Source: a virus (lineage: Duplodnaviria > Heunggongvirae > Uroviricota > Caudoviricetes). From it: 7,299 bases of DNA. Under the pieces are notes generated by a model that saw only the letters and a program-made list of their open reading frames with translations, did no database searches and was not told the origin of the DNA. The translations under genes were made by a program, and so were the position numbers. Positions 1-7,299 of the stretch are shown here, piece by piece (within the stretch, counting starts at the first letter, position 1; every line of letters starts with the position of its first letter). The stretch lies in the IMG/VR virus record IMGVR_UViG_2639763115_000004, positions 1 to 7,299 of that record; one strand, 5' to 3'.

Positions 1-63
1 ATCATACTTCAGCACATTAGGAAAATAGAACTGCTGCGCACCATACGCATCATAAACAGCCAT
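1..63 (-). CDS. 5' end (21 codons, [21 protein letters not shown]) of the gene downstream of the O-like gene, in the position of a P/DnaC-like helicase loader; truncated by the window edge
   Basis: ATG at 63-61 (minus) preceded by a weak AAGG about 7 nt upstream; open to the window edge. Position only, no recognisable similarity. Confidence 0.25.
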
Positions 64-124
64 AGAATGGCCTTGCACGGTAACGAATTTGGCAATCTGT
101 CCGTTATATACAGGGTATCCTGTC

Positions 125-946
125 TCATGCAATCCCCCTGTCTGCAAACTTCCCTTCCCGTACTCCCGTTAACGAATCTTCCCTCAGCAGGTAATCAAAA
201 TCAGCTGTCCAGCCAGTGTCGTTGTCTCCGAAGTAAAACGGCTTGGCCTGATGCACAAACGCCCTGACATACGCTCTGAAACCGTCCACGTTTGGCGTTT
301 TCAGTTGCGGGATGATTTTCTTCAGGCGGCGTTTGCGTTTCTCATTGACCGCAACAGCGTGTGGCAGTCTGTCACCGACTTCGGTGTTGTAGGCGTTCAG
401 GAAGGATTCGTAGTCGATTCGTTCTGCCTTGCGACGTTCAGGTTTAACCTGCCCATCGCCGACCCCGTTAGGGGGTAAGGGGGTATTTGTATTTATTGTC
501 TTTTGTATATTGTCTTTTGTGTTTAGCTGACTTGGCTTATACCCATTAGCCGACTTGGCTAATGTTTTATTAGCTGTTTTAGCTAATGTTAAGCTGTCCT
601 GGCTAATCCACTGCGAAACCACCTTGTTCACTCCGATTTTCACGCCATCAGCAATGAGGAATTTACGCTCAATAAGCTGGCGCTTGGCAGCGCAAACATG
701 AGTGTGATGAATACCTGTCATGGCTGCTATCTGCGTGTTTGTGAGTCGATCCATCGGCTTATTGAATCCGTATGTCTTGCGCATGATAGCGAGCATCACC
801 TTCAGCTGCCGGACGGTTAAATCAGCCATCAGCAGACTGTCGGTAATCTCGTTAGCAACGCGCATGAAACCATCTTCGGTATCTGCCACGCGATGCTCCA
901 CGACCTCCAGTTGAGGCCTGTAATCAGCTAACTTAACGACGCCCAT
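125..946 (-). CDS. Replication initiator protein, lambda O-like N-terminal domain with a different C-terminal domain
   Basis: 273-aa ORF; AGGAG 7 nt upstream of the ATG at 946; N-terminal segment [29 protein letters not shown] aligns with recalled lambda O (ADLTKRQFKVLLAILRKTYGWNKPMDRIT); repetitive linker [18 protein letters not shown] encoded by DNA iterons. Confidence 0.85.
481..610. repeat. Putative replication origin iterons inside the O-like gene
   Basis: Tandem direct repeats: attgtcttttgt at 495-506 and 509-520; agctgacttggct at 525-537 with near-copy agccgacttggct at 548-560; ggctaat/agctaatg copies at 557-609. AT-rich and located at the O interdomain linker as in lambda ori. Confidence 0.5.
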
Positions 947-1094
947 GTTTCACTCCTGCTTTGGCTAGTCTGTAAACACCAACAAGGCGCTCTGCGAACG
1001 CCCTGTTATTTGCTGCGGCTACCACTAATCCCTCAGGTGAATCAGGGTGTCGAATCTCTTCTTTTTCCTGGTATTTCTTACGACGTTTTGTCAT
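933..1094 (-). CDS. Small basic hypothetical protein (53 aa, [53 protein letters not shown]) between cII and O
   Basis: Not in the ORF track (under 60 aa); found by manual translation. AGGAG 6 nt upstream of the ATG at 1094; stop overlaps the O-like start by 14 nt in a different frame. Confidence 0.4.
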   Translation of the reverse strand: MTKRRKKYQEKEEIRHPDSPEGLVVAAANNRAFAERLVGVYRLAKAGVKHGRR

Positions 1095-1128
1095 AATTAC
1101 TCCTGTGGATTGATCCAGTCTTTCTACA

Positions 1129-1410
1129 TCAGGCCTCGAAGAATTCGCCGTTCTTCGGGGCTTTTTCTTTTGTCAGGTAATTGGCAAGCCGCTTAGTCAG
1201 CTCAGCCATTTCATCGTCTTCGATTCCGTATTCCAGAACAGCCAGCATCATGCTTACCTGCGAGAAGAAACCATTCTTCCATCGGCTTACCTGATATTCA
1301 GGAACCCCCATTGCTCGAGCGAATGTCTTCTGCCCCATCAGTGCCAGTTTGTTCAGCAAGGCTGACTCGATGCGAGCCGCTTTCTTGCTTTTAGTTGCAA
1401 TAGTACCCAT
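1129..1410 (-). CDS. cII: CII-like transcriptional activator of lysogeny
   Basis: 93-aa ORF; RIESALLNK...QVSRWK...SMMLAVLEYGIEDDEMA aligns with recalled lambda CII (RIESALLNK...QISRWK...SMLLAVLEWGVVDDDMA), roughly 40 percent identity by eye; TAAGGAAAT-type RBS before the ATG at 1410. Confidence 0.85.
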   Translation of the reverse strand: MGTIATKSKKAARIESALLNKLALMGQKTFARAMGVPEYQVSRWKNGFFSQVSMMLAVLEYGIEDDEMAELTKRLANYLTKEKAPKNGEFFEA

Positions 1411-1486
1411 AGATAATTTCCTTAATGATTAGATAGAGTTGGCTTCGCAAAGAAACGCAAAACCATAGAGATTTGTTTCTGGTAAT

Positions 1487-1518
1487 GCCCTTTTTCAGGG
1501 CGGGGATGTGTAAGAGCG
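1487..1518 (-). promoter_or_regulatory. nutR (boxA CGCTCTTACA plus boxB GCCCTGAAAAAGGGC) between cro and cII
   Basis: Minus-strand reading CGCTCTTACACATCCCCGCCCTGAAAAAGGGC; close to recalled lambda nutR. boxB is a 5-bp stem with a GAAAAA loop. Confidence 0.7.
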
Positions 1519-1526
1519 AGAATGTC

Positions 1527-2879
<1,353 letters not shown>

Positions 2880-2928
2880 TCCCCACCTCAATCTCGATAA
2901 CCAAAAACAAACTATTTTTCATTTAAAA

Positions 2929-3002
2929 ACAACGGAGTTTGTTTTTCACGCCCCTTTTTACAATATATCTTGTTTACAACATACAATCTTTCTTGTGATT
3001 TT
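2929..3002 (+). promoter_or_regulatory. 434-type OL operators (2929-2942, 2960-2973, 2983-2996) and putative pL promoter
   Basis: Three ACAA-N6-TTGT sites (acaacggagtttgt, acaatatatcttgt, acaatctttcttgt); candidate -35 TTTACA at 2973-2978 and -10 GATTTT at 2997-3002, oriented toward nutL and N. Confidence 0.65.
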
Positions 3003-3040
3003 AAGCCATCAGCAGGACGCACTGACCACCATGAAGGTGA

Positions 3041-3071
3041 CGCTCTTAAAAATTAAGCCCTGAAGAAGGGC
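3041..3071 (+). promoter_or_regulatory. nutL (boxA CGCTCTTAA at 3041-3049, boxB GCCCTGAAGAAGGGC at 3057-3071)
   Basis: Identical to lambda nutL boxA/boxB as I recall them; boxB is a 5-bp stem with a GAAGA loop. Confidence 0.75.
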
Positions 3072-3243
3072 AGCATTCAAAGCAGAAGGCTTTGGGGTGT
3101 GGTGAAGGGTTCATGGATGGGAATATGTCGCACGTAAAGCGGCGAGGCCTGCGGAACTATTGCCGAATTGAAGTCGGCCGAAGCAGGTCGAAATGGGTCT
3201 CCCACCTACCACACCACCAAAGCTAACTGACAGGAGAATCCAG

Positions 3244-3831
3244 ATGGATGCACAAACACGCCGCCGCGAACGTCGCGCAGAGAAACAGGCTCAATGGAAA
3301 GCAGCAAATCCCCTGTTGGTTGGGGTAAGCGCAAAACCAGTTACCGTGCTTGCGCTTCTTGATGAACTGGAAGCTCAAAGCAAACGCATTGCAGAGCTGG
3401 AGAAAAAAGCTGCACCAGATTCGTTTGGCATCATCGGTGAAAATATTCGAACACAGGATAATCGAATAACGTCAGACCCTATGTTTTGTGTGTATCAAAA
3501 GCGCGAAATCGTTGTTGATGCTGATTATGACTATGACCGGATTGTCTGGGTTGATGAAGATGGTAATGAAGCCAATAAACGCCAAAGTCGTCGTCTCGAA
3601 CTACTTCACGAAAACTTTCGAGAGCCACCAGAAAAATGGCGGCGCGTTGCTGTGAAAGATATTGATGAATTCGTTACCTGCTGTTTCACCGAACAGGGTT
3701 GTAAATACTACCTAGCAGCCAATGGTCACAATCTTCGCTTGCCATTTATATATGTAAAAAGCGGTTTCAGGAACGCTGAATATATCGGCATAAGAAACTG
3801 GCTTGCTGGCATTCGCATCAAAGGAGAGTGA
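3244..3831 (+). CDS. N-like protein: lambda N arginine-rich motif (residues 1-33) fused to an unrelated C-terminal region of about 160 aa
   Basis: AGGAG at 3232-3236 then ATG at 3244; MDAQTRRRERRAEKQAQWKAANPLLVGVSAKPV matches recalled lambda N, then diverges completely (TVLALLDELEAQSKRIAELEKK...). The ORF-track start at 3193 lacks an RBS and is rejected. Confidence 0.65.
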   Translation: MDAQTRRRERRAEKQAQWKAANPLLVGVSAKPVTVLALLDELEAQSKRIAELEKKAAPDSFGIIGENIRTQDNRITSDPMFCVYQKREIVVDADYDYDRIVWVDEDGNEANKRQSRRLELLHENFREPPEKWRRVAVKDIDEFVTCCFTEQGCKYYLAANGHNLRLPFIYVKSGFRNAEYIGIRNWLAGIRIKGE

Positions 3832-3832
3832 T

Positions 3833-4096
3833 ATGGCAACTTTGACAAAAAAGGAACAGGCATGGTTGAGCGAATTACAGAACGTTCTTGATCGCTGCCC
3901 GTCACCGAAAAAAATTGGTTTTTACACCATTGGCGATAAAAGCATTTACCTGTATGACCTGCGCCGCATGGATGAAATCATGGAGGCTCTTGATAATCGT
4001 TCGTCGATGGATTGGTGTGTTGCTGTTCATGATATGAATGCAGGGTTTGATGAAAAGATTTTGTTCCCCTCATCAGTTGAAAGCACTGCGGGTTAA
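3833..4096 (+). CDS. Hypothetical protein (87 aa), tightly coupled to the N-like gene
   Basis: AAGGAGA at 3821-3827, ATG at 3833, two nt after the upstream stop at 3829-3831. No recognisable domain. Confidence 0.6.
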   Translation: MATLTKKEQAWLSELQNVLDRCPSPKKIGFYTIGDKSIYLYDLRRMDEIMEALDNRSSMDWCVAVHDMNAGFDEKILFPSSVESTAG

Positions 4097-4106
4097 GGAG
4101 TAACAC

Positions 4107-4703
4107 ATGACCACTATTACCAAAGAACGTATTGAATTGTTCATTAAAAATCCGCTTGAAAACGGACTTACCCGTGGCGAACAAATGGAACTGGCACGAA
4201 TTGCTCTGGCATCGCTGCAACGCGAACAGATTCGCCACGAGCATGCCAAATGGTCTGACTCCACATTTGGCTGCGTTGGCCCCATTGGTCCGCTGAAACA
4301 TCTCTCAAAAGAGGCACTGGAAGCCGCAGCCGAACCAGACGATCTTAGCGAGTGGGCTGATATGCAGTTTCTGTTGTGGGATGCACAGCGCCGTGCTGGC
4401 ATCAGCGATGCTGAAATTACCGCTGCTATGGAAGATAAATTGAAGATCAACATGGAGCGCCAGTGGCCTGAGCCAAAAGATGGTGAGCCTCGCTTGCACA
4501 TTAAAGAACCCGGCAACTCTCCGGTAATTCCGGATGGTTGGGTTATGGTGCCGAAGGAGTTAACCCCGGAAATGATGAGAGCCGTTCAGATTAGAAGTGA
4601 GCTTGGAGGGTATGCCACTTCCAATCTATCTGGTGCATACAATATGTTTTCTGAGTTCTGGAATGTTGCTGTCTCAGCTGCGCCTAAGGTGGATGATTTA
4701 TGA
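4107..4703 (+). CDS. Putative MazG-like nucleotide pyrophosphohydrolase (DUF550-like N-domain, DUF551-like C-terminal region)
   Basis: AAGGAG at 4095-4100; segment EALEAAAEPDDLSEWADMQFLLWDAQRRAGISDAEITAAMEDKLKINMERQW resembles the all-alpha MazG/NTP-PPase motif (EExxE ... ELGD-like ... KL.xNxxR). Confidence 0.55.
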   Translation: MTTITKERIELFIKNPLENGLTRGEQMELARIALASLQREQIRHEHAKWSDSTFGCVGPIGPLKHLSKEALEAAAEPDDLSEWADMQFLLWDAQRRAGISDAEITAAMEDKLKINMERQWPEPKDGEPRLHIKEPGNSPVIPDGWVMVPKELTPEMMRAVQIRSELGGYATSNLSGAYNMFSEFWNVAVSAAPKVDDL

Positions 4704-5002
4704 ATCTATATCGCTGCCCATTCTGTGGTTCCACTGTGCTTAACATCGGATACTCATTCAGTATCAGAGGGAAAATGCGCTATGTGTCATGCAAATGTGG
4801 TGCCCAAGGACCAGAAAAACGAACTAAATCTGAAGCGATTTCTTCATGGAATAGTCGAATGAAAGTATGGGTTTATGATCCAGAAACCATATTAAACGCT
4901 GAAGAGCGCAGGAGAACGGAAGTCTATATTCATAACCTTAATGAAGATGGATTTACACCAGTGCTTGTAAAGGCTACTCCGCAGGAGGTTAACCATGGCT
5001 AA
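4700..5002 (+). CDS. Lar-family putative restriction-alleviation (anti-restriction) protein with a C-terminal extension
   Basis: ATGA overlap with the upstream stop; N-terminus MNLYRCPFCGSTVL...CKCGAQGP...AISSWNSR has the CPFCG plus CxC plus A..WN.R signature I associate with Lar-family zinc-ribbon proteins. Confidence 0.55.
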   Translation: MNLYRCPFCGSTVLNIGYSFSIRGKMRYVSCKCGAQGPEKRTKSEAISSWNSRMKVWVYDPETILNAEERRRTEVYIHNLNEDGFTPVLVKATPQEVNHG

Positions 5003-5064
5003 CCTGCAACTTGCCGTCAAAGGTGAATAACAATCCTCGCACTCGCGGGGATTTCTTTTATCTG

Positions 5065-5090
5065 AACTCGCTACGGCGAGTTTTGTTTTA
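5065..5090 (+). terminator. Putative intrinsic terminator after the Lar-like gene
   Basis: Stem aactcgc (5065-5071), loop tacg, stem gcgagtt (5076-5082), then T-rich ttgtttta. Confidence 0.45.
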
Positions 5091-5102
5091 TGGAGATGAT
5101 AA

Positions 5103-5270
5103 ATGCACTTCCGAGTCACAGGTGAATGGAATGGAGAACCATTCAACAGAGTTATCGAAGCAGAGGACATCAACGACTGCTATAACCACTGGATGATATG
5201 GGCGCAGATAGCGCATGCAGACGTAACCAATATTCGAATTGAAGAACTGAAAGAACACCAAGCCGCCTGA
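5103..5270 (+). CDS. Small hypothetical prophage protein (55 aa, MHFRVTGEWNGEPFNRVIEAEDINDCYNHWMIWAQIAHADVTNIRIEELKEHQAA)
   Basis: GGAGA 7 nt upstream of the ATG at 5103; followed at once by a terminator hairpin. Not in the ORF track (under 60 aa). Confidence 0.5.
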   Translation: MHFRVTGEWNGEPFNRVIEAEDINDCYNHWMIWAQIAHADVTNIRIEELKEHQAA

Positions 5271-5283
5271 TGGCGGTTTTTTA
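5261..5283 (+). terminator. Putative intrinsic terminator
   Basis: ccgcc (5263-5267), loop tgat, ggcgg (5272-5276), then tttttt (5277-5282); overlaps the stop codon of the 55-aa gene. Confidence 0.55.
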
Positions 5284-5293
5284 TTGCCTGATT

Positions 5294-5308
5294 TGCAGGT
5301 TCGATTCC
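5294..5308 (+). other. tRNA-derived fragment: 15 nt identical to the T-arm 5' half of tRNA-Arg(CCU) argW (tgcaggttcgattcc)
   Basis: Exact 15-nt match to recalled argW, with degenerate similarity a few nt upstream; the rest of the tRNA is absent. Confidence 0.4.
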
Positions 5309-5327
5309 CTATTCGGAGATAGCACTC

Positions 5328-5528
5328 ATGCAACACGAACTACAGCCTGATTCACTGGTTGATTTGAAATTCATCATGGCCGATACTGGCTTCGGTAAAA
5401 CCTTCATCTACGACCGGATTAAGTCCGGCGACCTGCCAAAAGCCAAAGTTATCCACGGACGAGCAAGATGGTTATATCGTGACCATTGTGAATTCAAAAA
5501 TAAGCTCTTAAGCCGCGCTAATGGGTAA
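5328..5528 (+). CDS. torI: AlpA-family excisionase / recombination directionality factor (TorI-like, 66 aa)
   Basis: SLVDLKFIMADTGFGKTFIYDRIKSGDLPKAKVIHGRARWLY fits the AlpA/Xis winged-helix pattern; length and position next to an argW attR core fit KplE1 TorI as I recall it. GGAGA 8 nt upstream. Confidence 0.7.
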   Translation: MQHELQPDSLVDLKFIMADTGFGKTFIYDRIKSGDLPKAKVIHGRARWLYRDHCEFKNKLLSRANG

Positions 5529-5544
5529 AATAGCGGGTAAAATA
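5523..5544 (+). repeat. Tandem direct repeat gggtaaaata x2 (5523-5532, 5535-5544), candidate RDF or integrase arm-type binding sites
   Basis: Two exact 10-bp copies at a 12-bp period spanning the torI-like stop codon, about 60 bp from the att core. Confidence 0.35.
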
Positions 5545-5602
5545 TTTCTCACATCTAAAAAATATCATTCCAATCAATCCCCTGCCGCGCCAAGTAGATG
5601 TC

Positions 5603-5617
5603 TGCAGGGGACACCAT
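5603..5617 (+). other. Putative attR core: terminal 15 nt of tRNA-Arg(CCU) argW (ctgcaggggacacca)
   Basis: Exact match to the recalled argW 3' end including CCA; no intact tRNA upstream, so this is a duplicated att core rather than a gene. Confidence 0.6.
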
Positions 5618-6000
5618 TTATCCTTCCAACGAAATCCACCTTCCCCGCGTAAAAGTTGGGTTTGGCAGCACACTTGCCCTAAATCTACTCATTTTCCCTG
5701 CAACAGGTTGAAATCTCAGCACTGTGCGGCGATGACTAAACAGCCCCGGGCCTGGCAATGTATTCATCACACAGAATCCTGATCGCGAAATCTGGCTTGA
5801 CTCGATACTTCACTCCGCAATGCATTCCTTGATGGATTAGCAGGCCCGTGATACACGGGACAGGTCGCTGAATTACGACAATTTCCTGGAAATCAGCGAA
5901 CCGCGTATCCTGAGTACATTTGAGCGACTGTTCCAGAACATGAATGAGGCGTTTGGATTAGGCGATTATTAGCCGCGCTAAGCATTTTGGTATTATTATT

Positions 6001-6040
6001 TTCCGGTTGAGGGATATAGAGCTATCGACAACAACCGGAA
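6001..6040. repeat. 9-bp inverted repeat ttccggttg / caaccggaa with a 22-nt spacer, 12 bp downstream of the cscB stop
   Basis: Perfect reverse-complement arms at 6001-6009 and 6032-6040; no U-tract on the cscB transcript side, so not a canonical terminator. Confidence 0.3.
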
Positions 6041-6051
6041 AGAGTTTACGT

Positions 6052-7299
6052 CTATATTGCAGAAGGTACAGGCGTTTCCATCACCATTTGCTCACGCTTT
6101 TTACTCAGGAAGAAAATGCCAAATAACAACATCAGGCAGACAATACCCGAAATTACGAAGAAAACCGTCTGGTAACCTGCATGGTCAAAAAGTATTCCAG
6201 TCGGCGTTGAAAGCAACACAATCCCCAACGAACTAGCAATTTGAAAACCAATCAGAAAGATCGTCGACGACAGGCGCTTATCAAAGTTTGCCACGCTGTA
6301 TTTGAAGACGGAAATGACACACAGTGGAACCTCAATGGCATGTAACAGCTTCACTAATGAAATAATCCAGGGATTAACGAACAGTGCGCAGGAAAGAATA
6401 CGCAACGCCATAATCACAACACCGATAAGTAATGCATTTTTTGGCCCTACCCGGTTAACAAAGAAAGGAATAATGGCCATGCACAGCGCTTCGAGTACAA
6501 CCTGGAATGAGTTGAGATAACCATACAGGCGCGTTCCTACATCGTGTGATTCGAATAAACCTGCATAAAAAACAGGAAAGAGCTGTTGATCAAAAATGTT
6601 ATAGAAAGACCACGTCCCCACAATAAATATGACGAAAATCCAGAAGTTTCGATCCTTGAAAACTGCAATAAAATCCTCTTTTTTTACCCCTCCCGCATCT
6701 GCCGCTACGCACTGCTGATCCTGATATTTAAAACGCATGTTGATCATCATAAATACAGCGCCAAATAGCGAAACCAACCAGAAGTTGATATGGGGACTGA
6801 TACTGAAAAATATGCCAGCAAAGAACGCGCCAATCGCATAGCCAAAAGATCCCCAGGCGCGCGCTGTTCCATATTCGAAATGAAAATTTCGTGCCATTTT
6901 TTCGGTGAAGCTATCAAGCAGACCGCAGCCCGCCAGATACCCCAAGCCAAAAAAGAGCGCCCCCAAAATTAGACCTACAGAAAAATTGCTTTGCAGTAAC
7001 GGTTCATAAACGTAAATCATAAACGGTCCGGTCAAGACCAGGATGAAACTCATACACCAGATAAGCGGTTTCTTCAGACCGAGTTTATCCTGGACGATGC
7101 CGTAGACCATCATAAATAGAATACTGGTAAACTGGTTGACCGAATAAAGTGTACCTAATTCCGTCCCAGTCAACCCTAGATGTCCTTTCAGCCAAATAGC
7201 GTATAACGACCACCACAGCGACCAGGAAATAAAAAAGAGAAATGAGTAACTGGATGCAAAACGATAGTACACATTTCTGAATGGTATATTCAGTGCCAT
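6052..7299 (-). CDS. cscB: Sucrose:H+ symporter, LacY-family MFS oligosaccharide permease (CscB-like, 415 aa)
   Basis: Complete 415-aa ORF with its start codon at the window edge; multi-TM hydrophobic protein whose N-terminus MALNIPFRNVYYRFASSYSFLFFISWSLWW and length match CscB as I recall it; clear LacY-family similarity. Confidence 0.8.
   Translation of the reverse strand: MALNIPFRNVYYRFASSYSFLFFISWSLWWSLYAIWLKGHLGLTGTELGTLYSVNQFTSILFMMVYGIVQDKLGLKKPLIWCMSFILVLTGPFMIYVYEPLLQSNFSVGLILGALFFGLGYLAGCGLLDSFTEKMARNFHFEYGTARAWGSFGYAIGAFFAGIFFSISPHINFWLVSLFGAVFMMINMRFKYQDQQCVAADAGGVKKEDFIAVFKDRNFWIFVIFIVGTWSFYNIFDQQLFPVFYAGLFESHDVGTRLYGYLNSFQVVLEALCMAIIPFFVNRVGPKNALLIGVVIMALRILSCALFVNPWIISLVKLLHAIEVPLCVISVFKYSVANFDKRLSSTIFLIGFQIASSLGIVLLSTPTGILFDHAGYQTVFFVISGIVCLMLLFGIFFLSKKREQMVMETPVPSAI

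Follow-up and report, generated by a model that had tools for sequence, protein, structure and literature searches.

An in-frame deletion between N and an ead/Ea22-like gene as the probable origin of a fused reading frame in the pL operon of a lambdoid prophage

Results

The DNA analysed here (hereafter the window; 7,299 nucleotides, positions 1 to 7,299 of IMG/VR virus record IMGVR_UViG_2639763115_000004) covers part of the chromosome and, adjoining it, the immunity and early-left region of a lambdoid/P22-like E. coli prophage. It originates from contig JWKK01000017.1 (252.5 kb) of the draft assembly GCA_000812765.1; the window starts at contig base 3, and the contig break splits the prophage inside its replication region. 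The subject of this study is a 195-codon open reading frame (ORF) of the pL operon, located directly after nutL (Table 1). A previous sequence-only reading of the window had proposed that this ORF starts with the arginine-rich part of lambda N, preceded by nutL and the N ribosome-binding site (RBS), and that the parts of N interacting with NusA and RNA polymerase have been replaced by a tail unrelated to N. All of these elements were confirmed, coordinates included, at a level of agreement far above chance: the ORF is real, a motif scan and alignment identified a lambda-type nutL and the lambda N RBS upstream of it (the lambda boxA is given as 5'-CGCUCUUA-3'; PMC2724277), and its product consists of two parts of different parentage, which are described below.

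Table 1. Features of the window, in order of position
Feature	Position	Strand	Remarks
O-type replication gene	125-946	-	
cII	1129-1410	-	
cro-type gene		-	
nutR, lambda-type	1487-1518	-	boxA 1518-1511, boxB 1501-1487; motif match
oR	1756-1814		triplet of 434-type operators ACAA-N6-TTGT; pattern scan
cI repressor gene	1846-2478	+	HTH and Peptidase_S24 domains
134-aa gene	2475-2879	+	start overlaps the cI stop codon (ATGA); PHROG 2651
oL/pL	2929-2942, 2960-2973, 2983-2996		three 434-type operators ACAA-N6-TTGT; pattern scan
nutL	3041-3071	+	exact lambda-type boxA CGCTCTTA 3041-3048, boxB hairpin GCCCTGAAGAAGGGC 3057-3071
lambda N Shine-Dalgarno sequence and start	3232-3246	+	AGGAGAATCCAGATG; ATG 3244; identical to lambda in the alignment
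Fused ORF	3244-3831	+	195 aa plus stop; WP_077782388.1, NCBI name 'antitermination protein N'
N-derived segment	3244-3343	+	codons 1-33 and the initial base of codon 34; arginine-rich motif with linker; Pfam N36, PDB identity, blastn
Deletion junction	3342-3343	+	2-bp 'TA' common to both parents, within a 13-mer 9/13 identical (N GCAAAACCAGTTA, Ea22-like GCTAATCCGGCTA)
Ea22-like-derived segment	3342-3831	+	codons 34-195; same as residues 69-230 of the intact ead/Ea22-like proteins (230 aa)
Coiled-coil segment of Ea22-like parent	3343-3408	+	residues 34-55
Compact alpha/beta C-terminal domain	3418-3807	+	residues 59-188; intact; function not known
Codon 155	3706-3708	+	TAC (Tyr); sole difference from nearest intact parental alleles (Asp; GAC to TAC)
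87-aa PHROG 1714 gene	start ATG 3833	+	next gene after the fused ORF
Gene with dATP/dGTP pyrophosphohydrolase domain			after the PHROG 1714 gene; rightward from pL
Lar-like gene			after the pyrophosphohydrolase-domain gene; rightward from pL
55-aa gene			after the Lar-like gene; rightward from pL
Intrinsic-terminator-like hairpins	5032-5053, 5064-5083	+	first downstream of the fusion in the pL transcript; consensus scan, pattern matches only
Terminator-like hairpin	5260-5279	+	consensus scan, pattern match only
TorI/AlpA-type excisionase gene	5328-5528		last phage gene
cscB, chromosomal sucrose permease gene	6052-7299	-	

The first 33 residues of the predicted protein are those of lambda N. 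Pfam N36 (PF11438) matches residues 2-33 (E = 9e-24), and residues 1-33 are identical at 33/33 positions to the lambda N chains of PDB entries 5LM7, 6GOV and 1QFQ, the match ending after V33. At the DNA level, blastn matches to the N genes of E. coli WCHEC96200 (L005), of the prophage of Ec-U18 (L003) and of lambda end at position 3343. The C-terminal part of lambda N (approximately residues 73-107) contacts RNA polymerase, in agreement with the N chains of 5LM7 and 6GOV. Of the four features that define N-type antiterminators, the fusion has two, namely (i) an N-terminal arginine-rich motif, predicted from its sequence to bind boxB, and (ii) the position of the first pL-operon gene downstream of nutL. 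The remaining two are absent: (iii) the NusA-binding segment 34-47, since Ea22-like sequence begins at residue 34, and (iv) the RNA polymerase-contacting C-terminal region, no N-like sequence being found past residue 33. The intact N alleles of the Ec-U18, WCHEC96200 and ET151 (L006) prophages are 108 aa long and have the C-terminal region. The fusion breaks exactly before N(34-47), the segment that binds NusA AR1 (PMC2724277).

The 162 residues that follow (34-195) have no similarity to N; they include 28 acidic and 25 basic residues, with cysteines at positions 82, 146, 147 and 153. Judging from its sequence, this tail is the body of an ordinary ead/Ea22-like gene (PHROG 3205) of the early-left exo-xis region. 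The profile phrog_3205 matches residues 43-194 at 1.6e-50, and in BLASTP residues 30-195 align with residues 65-230 of URC09300.1 (230 aa, Escherichia phage vB_EcoP-683R2) with 162/166 identities. Three intact alleles of 230 aa, found in E. coli, E. albertii and Salmonella (P0124, P0129 and P0132), are identical to residues 34-195 at 161/162 positions. The DNA itself gave the same result: positions 3342-3837 are 99.4% identical to the gene of vB_EcoP-683R2, and positions 3342-3550 are 100% identical to 35 E. coli genomes among the matches listed, in which the gene is annotated as ead/Ea22-like. The N-terminal domain of such proteins (residues 1-68 of the 230-aa parents, MSKIDYQALREAAEKAG...) is absent, and N residues 1-33 stand in its place. 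The tail thus aligns to the internal part of a downstream early-left gene at 98-99% identity, an outcome that the sequence-only reading had named as evidence for a simple deletion fusion.

The architecture of the Ea22-like parent beyond its N-terminal domain is retained. Pfam Ead_Ea22 (PF13935) scores 30.8 bits against a cut-off of 27 over residues 15-55, which places the central coiled-coil feature of the family in the fusion, and the PHROG 3205 subfamily's C-terminal domain is also present. In the AF2 model of the whole fusion (pLDDT 93.6; 94.4 for the C-terminal domain modelled alone), a long predicted helix spanning residues 3-54 unites the arginine-rich motif with the Ea22 coiled coil and is followed by an alpha/beta domain (residues 59-188); at residues 32-54 this helix coincides with the coiled-coil segment. 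The C-terminal domain has 1,453 clusters of homologs. It gave no Pfam match, no sequence relative in PDB and no Foldseek match against PDB at E <= 0.001, and the whole fusion had no NCBIfam or PADLOC match.

The single difference from the nearest intact alleles, D155Y, lies in CFTEQGCKD, the most conserved motif of the domain; the corresponding column holds D or E in 79/83 homologs and Y in none. The substitution could reflect relaxed constraint after the fusion, with which it is weakly consistent, or a sequencing error.

In lambda Ea22, the N-terminal domain is short and is followed by a coiled coil, through which the protein forms a tetramer, and by a C-terminal domain (PMC10834534). Ea22 proteins have been reported to favour lysogeny (PMC7093339, PMC10834534). 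However, functional data on lambda Ea22 transfer only loosely to the present subfamily, because the two have in common only the first ~21 and the last 8 residues. These last eight residues, AGIRIKGE, are found in both the fusion and lambda Ea22 (L002 2848-3396, - strand), the C-terminal domains being otherwise unrelated. The stretch encoding them (3808-3835) holds the RBS AAAGGAGAG and adjoins the start of the next gene, and therefore looks like a conserved gene-boundary joint for the exchange of exo-xis modules.

A three-way alignment of the DNA shows agreement of the window with lambda N up to ...GCAAAACCAGTTA (3343) and with the Ea22-like gene starting at TACCGTGCTTGCG... (3342 onwards). 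The N half and the Ea22-like half are ~98-100% identical to their respective parents. As only the TA dinucleotide is common to both parents at the breakpoint, the junction bears the signature of an illegitimate, microhomology-mediated deletion, and not of a homologous module exchange.

The extent of the missing interval was established by comparison with undeleted relatives. The prophage of E. coli WCHEC96200 carries the same cI, the same 134-aa gene and a 108-aa N, which is followed in order by Ral, a small ORF, Kil, an ORF, RecT, Gp157, an ORF, DUF5405, DUF2737, DUF7446 and the ead/Ea22-like gene. Window position 3343 corresponds to position 4423 of this record, and the window picks up again at approximately 8425, so that ~4.0 kb is missing. 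In the prophage of Ec-U18, which occupies the same cscB site, the 108-aa N is followed by a module of Rad52, SSB, exonuclease and anti-RecBCD genes. ET151 is 98.7% identical to the window over positions 116-3346 and has an intact 108-aa N. The sure losses are N codons 34-108 and codons 1-68 of the Ea22-like gene. Going by these relatives, the deletion presumably also took ral and kil, the recombination module and a number of small ORFs; because the region is mosaic, the direct ancestor may have differed from them in gene content.

Because about a dozen genomes are exact matches to the window as far as position 3346, and because the N gene of ET151 is annotated as a pseudogene, a shared or recurrent breakpoint was considered. 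It was rejected: the ET151 DNA shows an intact 108-aa N, and the matches stop at 3346 because the window itself diverges there. The RefSeq annotation of ET151 labels this intact gene (L006 10225-10551) as a partial pseudogene missing both ends (L006 10192-10284).

Other carriers of the junction were sought by megablast with a 401-bp junction probe and the whole window, and by an exact scan with a 24-mer across the junction (GCAAAACCAGTTACCGTGCTTGCG). None of 5,426 complete E. coli genomes spans the 401-bp probe or covers 80% of the window, and none of the 243 matching records in a phage collection of 50,697 records spans the junction. The 24-mer had no exact match in one-genome-per-species contigs, IMG/VR contigs or JGI metagenome contigs. 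At the protein level, the N36 domain was found in none of the best 120 of 1,128 homologs, all of which are plain ead/Ea22-like proteins, and among 283 proteins retrieved only the fusion itself has RRRERRAEK. The exact 195-aa protein is represented by one record among ~15 billion sequences, WP_077782388.1, encoded on the contig analysed here. Conservation of the junction across prophages, which the sequence-only reading had named as an argument for selection, was not observed; the junction was found in one draft genome only. No paper naming the assembly or the protein accession was found in the literature.

Two kinds of apparent relatives were dismissed. P0012 and similar proteins cover 96% of the fusion, but the surplus comes from a spurious extension of the alignment, at low identity, into the N-termini of these proteins, and P0138 (195 aa, with the domain in the same register) has an N-terminus unrelated to N.

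Discussion

Taken together, the fused ORF is very probably the scar of one recent in-frame deletion of ~4 kb within the pL operon, by which the prophage would have lost antitermination and lytic growth. The proposed ancestor is a prophage of the lambdoid/P22-like kind that is integrated beside cscB and carries a 434-type immunity region. By illegitimate recombination at TA, N codon 33 would have been joined to codon 69 of the Ea22-like gene lying further along the same transcript. The join would be in frame by chance, leaving a product with the arginine-rich motif, an Ea22-type coiled coil and an intact C-terminal domain. The event appears recent, since both halves are still so close to the parental genes, and advanced decay is not indicated, as the genes around it in the window show no visible degradation. 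The sequence-only reading had offered, as its second option, an in-frame deletion scar in a decaying prophage: the scar is upheld by the parentage, the breakpoint and the relatives, while the decay of the neighbours is not.

The expected consequences follow from the domain map of N. Because the NusA- and RNA polymerase-binding parts (N residues 34-108) are gone, the fusion should be unable to build a termination-resistant complex, and antitermination by it is most probably lost. Both nutL and nutR are of lambda type, so that the prophage, its right operon included, would depend on a lambda-type N. Transcripts from pL would then end at the hairpins between positions 5032 and 5083 and at 5260-5279, before the excisionase gene, and those from pR would not reach the replication and late-regulator genes. 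Lambda prophages defective in N are generally unable to express delayed-early genes. The prophage is thus predicted to keep its immunity but probably to have lost the ability to excise and grow lytically, unless another prophage provides N in trans. It is plausible that the joint loss of kil and N, which would spare the host after accidental derepression, is a reason for the persistence of the deletion.

Several points weigh against this explanation. The reading frame is kept across the junction, and nothing is damaged in the arginine-rich motif, coiled coil, C-terminal domain, nutL or nutR, so that induction could in principle yield an oligomer that binds boxB. The neighbouring genes look intact and the prophage is not heavily decayed. 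Moreover, the loss of antitermination is read from the known domain map of N, and the state of the prophage is judged from 7.3 kb, because the contig starts inside it. As to the reading frame, an in-frame join is expected in one third of random deletions.

Since the sequence is known from a single draft assembly, an artefact has to be considered, i.e. a chimeric short-read join among related lambdoid prophages, behind which the real N and Ea22-like genes would be intact. The contig has its start only 2 bp ahead of the window and within the replication gene of the prophage, a sign that the assembler had trouble with this prophage, and such modules are often multi-copy in E. coli genomes (up to 12 places per genome). 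However, mis-joins normally need repeats at least as long as the assembler k-mer, and the parents share only 2 bp within the 9/13 imperfect match. The join is also clean, in frame and 3.3 kb from the contig end, and the flanking genes have the order and orientation seen in real prophages. We therefore regard an artefact as unlikely. Still harder to accept is a natural mosaic variant, i.e. a functional N allele whose C-terminal two-thirds were swapped by homologous exchange. Lambdoid genes are highly mosaic, and the N leader (~3095-3217) already differs from those of lambda and WCHEC96200; yet the replacement is not of N type, being the body of another gene family from 4 kb downstream, no other retrieved protein joins the two parts, and the NusA-binding segment is lacking. 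This origin is hardly credible.

The first option of the sequence-only reading was a boxB-tethered protein with a new function, as a variant antiterminator or a Nun-like terminator or exclusion factor. Such a protein would be made from pL, bind boxB RNA at nutL and nutR and oligomerise through the Ea22 coiled coil, and would either deliver an Ea22-type domain to the nascent transcript or act as a decoy blocking N-dependent antitermination, by which its own prophage would be locked or superinfecting phages with a lambda-type N excluded. The intact motif (33/33) and the intact lambda-type boxB sequences at both nut sites speak for it, as do the retained coiled coil and the C-terminal domain, which is confidently folded in the model, and the pro-lysogenic role reported for Ea22 proteins (PMC7093339, PMC10834534). 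Engineered N-peptide fusions are among the solved structures (PDB 7A4F-7A4J). The lambda-N/boxB tethering method exploits the binding of such fusions to boxB-tagged RNA. One study that employs this system is PMC11786793. Nevertheless, the junction occurs in one draft genome, with no conservation and no second lineage, and the near-identity of both halves to their parents leaves no time for selection. The sole substitution, D155Y, is non-conservative and affects the domain's most conserved motif, no defence-system model matches (PADLOC), and the one-in-three prior makes an in-frame join unremarkable. The gene furthermore lies behind pL/oL, where the resident repressor should prevent transcription in a lysogen; a Nun-like exclusion role there is unlikely for this reason. 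As to read-through from cI in the lysogen, no convincing evidence of a terminator or promoter was obtained: between the 134-aa gene and pL, the sole find was a weak A/T-rich hairpin (22-nt loop), which is not better than shuffled sequence (z = -0.66). A new function of this kind is thus very unlikely, and on the terms of the sequence-only reading itself it is refuted, since the tail derives from a downstream gene and the junction is present in one genome. The narrower idea of an oligomeric boxB decoy, in which four arginine-rich motifs on an Ea22-type coiled coil would compete with functional lambda-type N supplied in trans by co-resident or superinfecting phages, is highly improbable. If it were true, the fusion would represent an accidental, natural dominant-negative inhibitor of antitermination by N, of help to the survival of the host, and would parallel in nature the engineered lambda-N/boxB tethering tools. 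Overall, a selected new function is most probably absent, and the deletion scar remains the preferred explanation.

This explanation agrees with the comparison with known systems. The fusion resembles lambda N (PF11438; 1QFQ, 5LM7, 6GOV) in residues 1-33, in its RBS, in its place after pL and nutL and in having nutR on the opposite side, but lacks everything after V33. It resembles the ead/Ea22-like family (PF13935; PHROG 3205) in the coiled coil and the whole C-terminal domain, in the same last residues AGIRIKGE and in the same following gene start; unlike those parents, it has the N arginine-rich motif in place of the first 68 residues, carries D155Y and is located directly after nutL instead of in the exo-xis region. 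Nun of HK022 is an arginine-rich-motif protein at the N position, which recognises lambda boxB and terminates transcription of superinfecting lambda. Like Nun, the fusion occupies the N position of a prophage and joins an N-type arginine-rich motif to a C-terminal part that is not of N type. However, Nun is a conserved gene of a viable phage and is expressed in lysogens, whereas the fusion, a one-time product of deletion, lies behind a repressed pL and was found in one genome and in no viable phage lineage. A Nun-related C-terminal region is absent, the tail being fully accounted for as Ea22-like; no relation to Nun appeared among the PDB sequence matches (E <= 1), Pfam or PHROG, although no direct pairwise comparison with Nun was run. 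The closest parallel is provided by cryptic lambdoid prophages with pL-operon deletions, which have likewise lost N and the kil/recombination block and kept the immunity region. They differ from the present case in nothing of substance, the only oddity being that the endpoints fell in two ORFs in the same frame. The event is thus of a known kind, a routine prophage deletion and not a new kind of RNA-tethered protein.

The locus adds one more case of a prophage disarmed by internal deletion, with N and the kil/recombination block gone and immunity kept. Its biological weight is small, and its practical value concerns annotation. The RefSeq name 'antitermination protein N' of WP_077782388.1 is misleading, as 33/195 residues are those of N and two of its three functional parts are absent. 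Scans that flag a known motif followed by an unrelated tail should first check the tail against downstream genes of the same operon.

Other features of the window

The cI and cro genes appear to be of the phage 434 types, with which the ACAA-N6-TTGT operator triplets at oR and oL are consistent. The right end of the prophage adjoins cscB-cscK-cscA-cscR-dsdA; neither an integrase gene nor a tRNA gene was found at this cscB-side end, and scans of the window detected no tRNA or Rfam families. With the excisionase gene last and the integrase gene presumably at the other end, we take the layout to be of the KplE1/HK620 type.

Two mosaic patches of the window have no counterpart in WCHEC96200 or lambda: (i) positions 3095-3217, i.e. 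the N leader between nutL and the RBS, which is matched by ET151-type prophages, and (ii) positions 3838-5023, containing the PHROG 1714, pyrophosphohydrolase-domain and Lar-like genes.

The 134-aa ORF occupies the position of rexAB in lambda. Its product matches PHROG 2651 (function not known) at 6.7e-59, with no Pfam, NCBIfam or PADLOC match, and has a hydrophobic, signal-like N-terminus. Because its start overlaps the cI stop codon in this rexAB-like position, the ORF is probably co-transcribed with the repressor gene in the lysogen, and its sequence and placement make it a candidate lysogen-expressed moron or exclusion gene.
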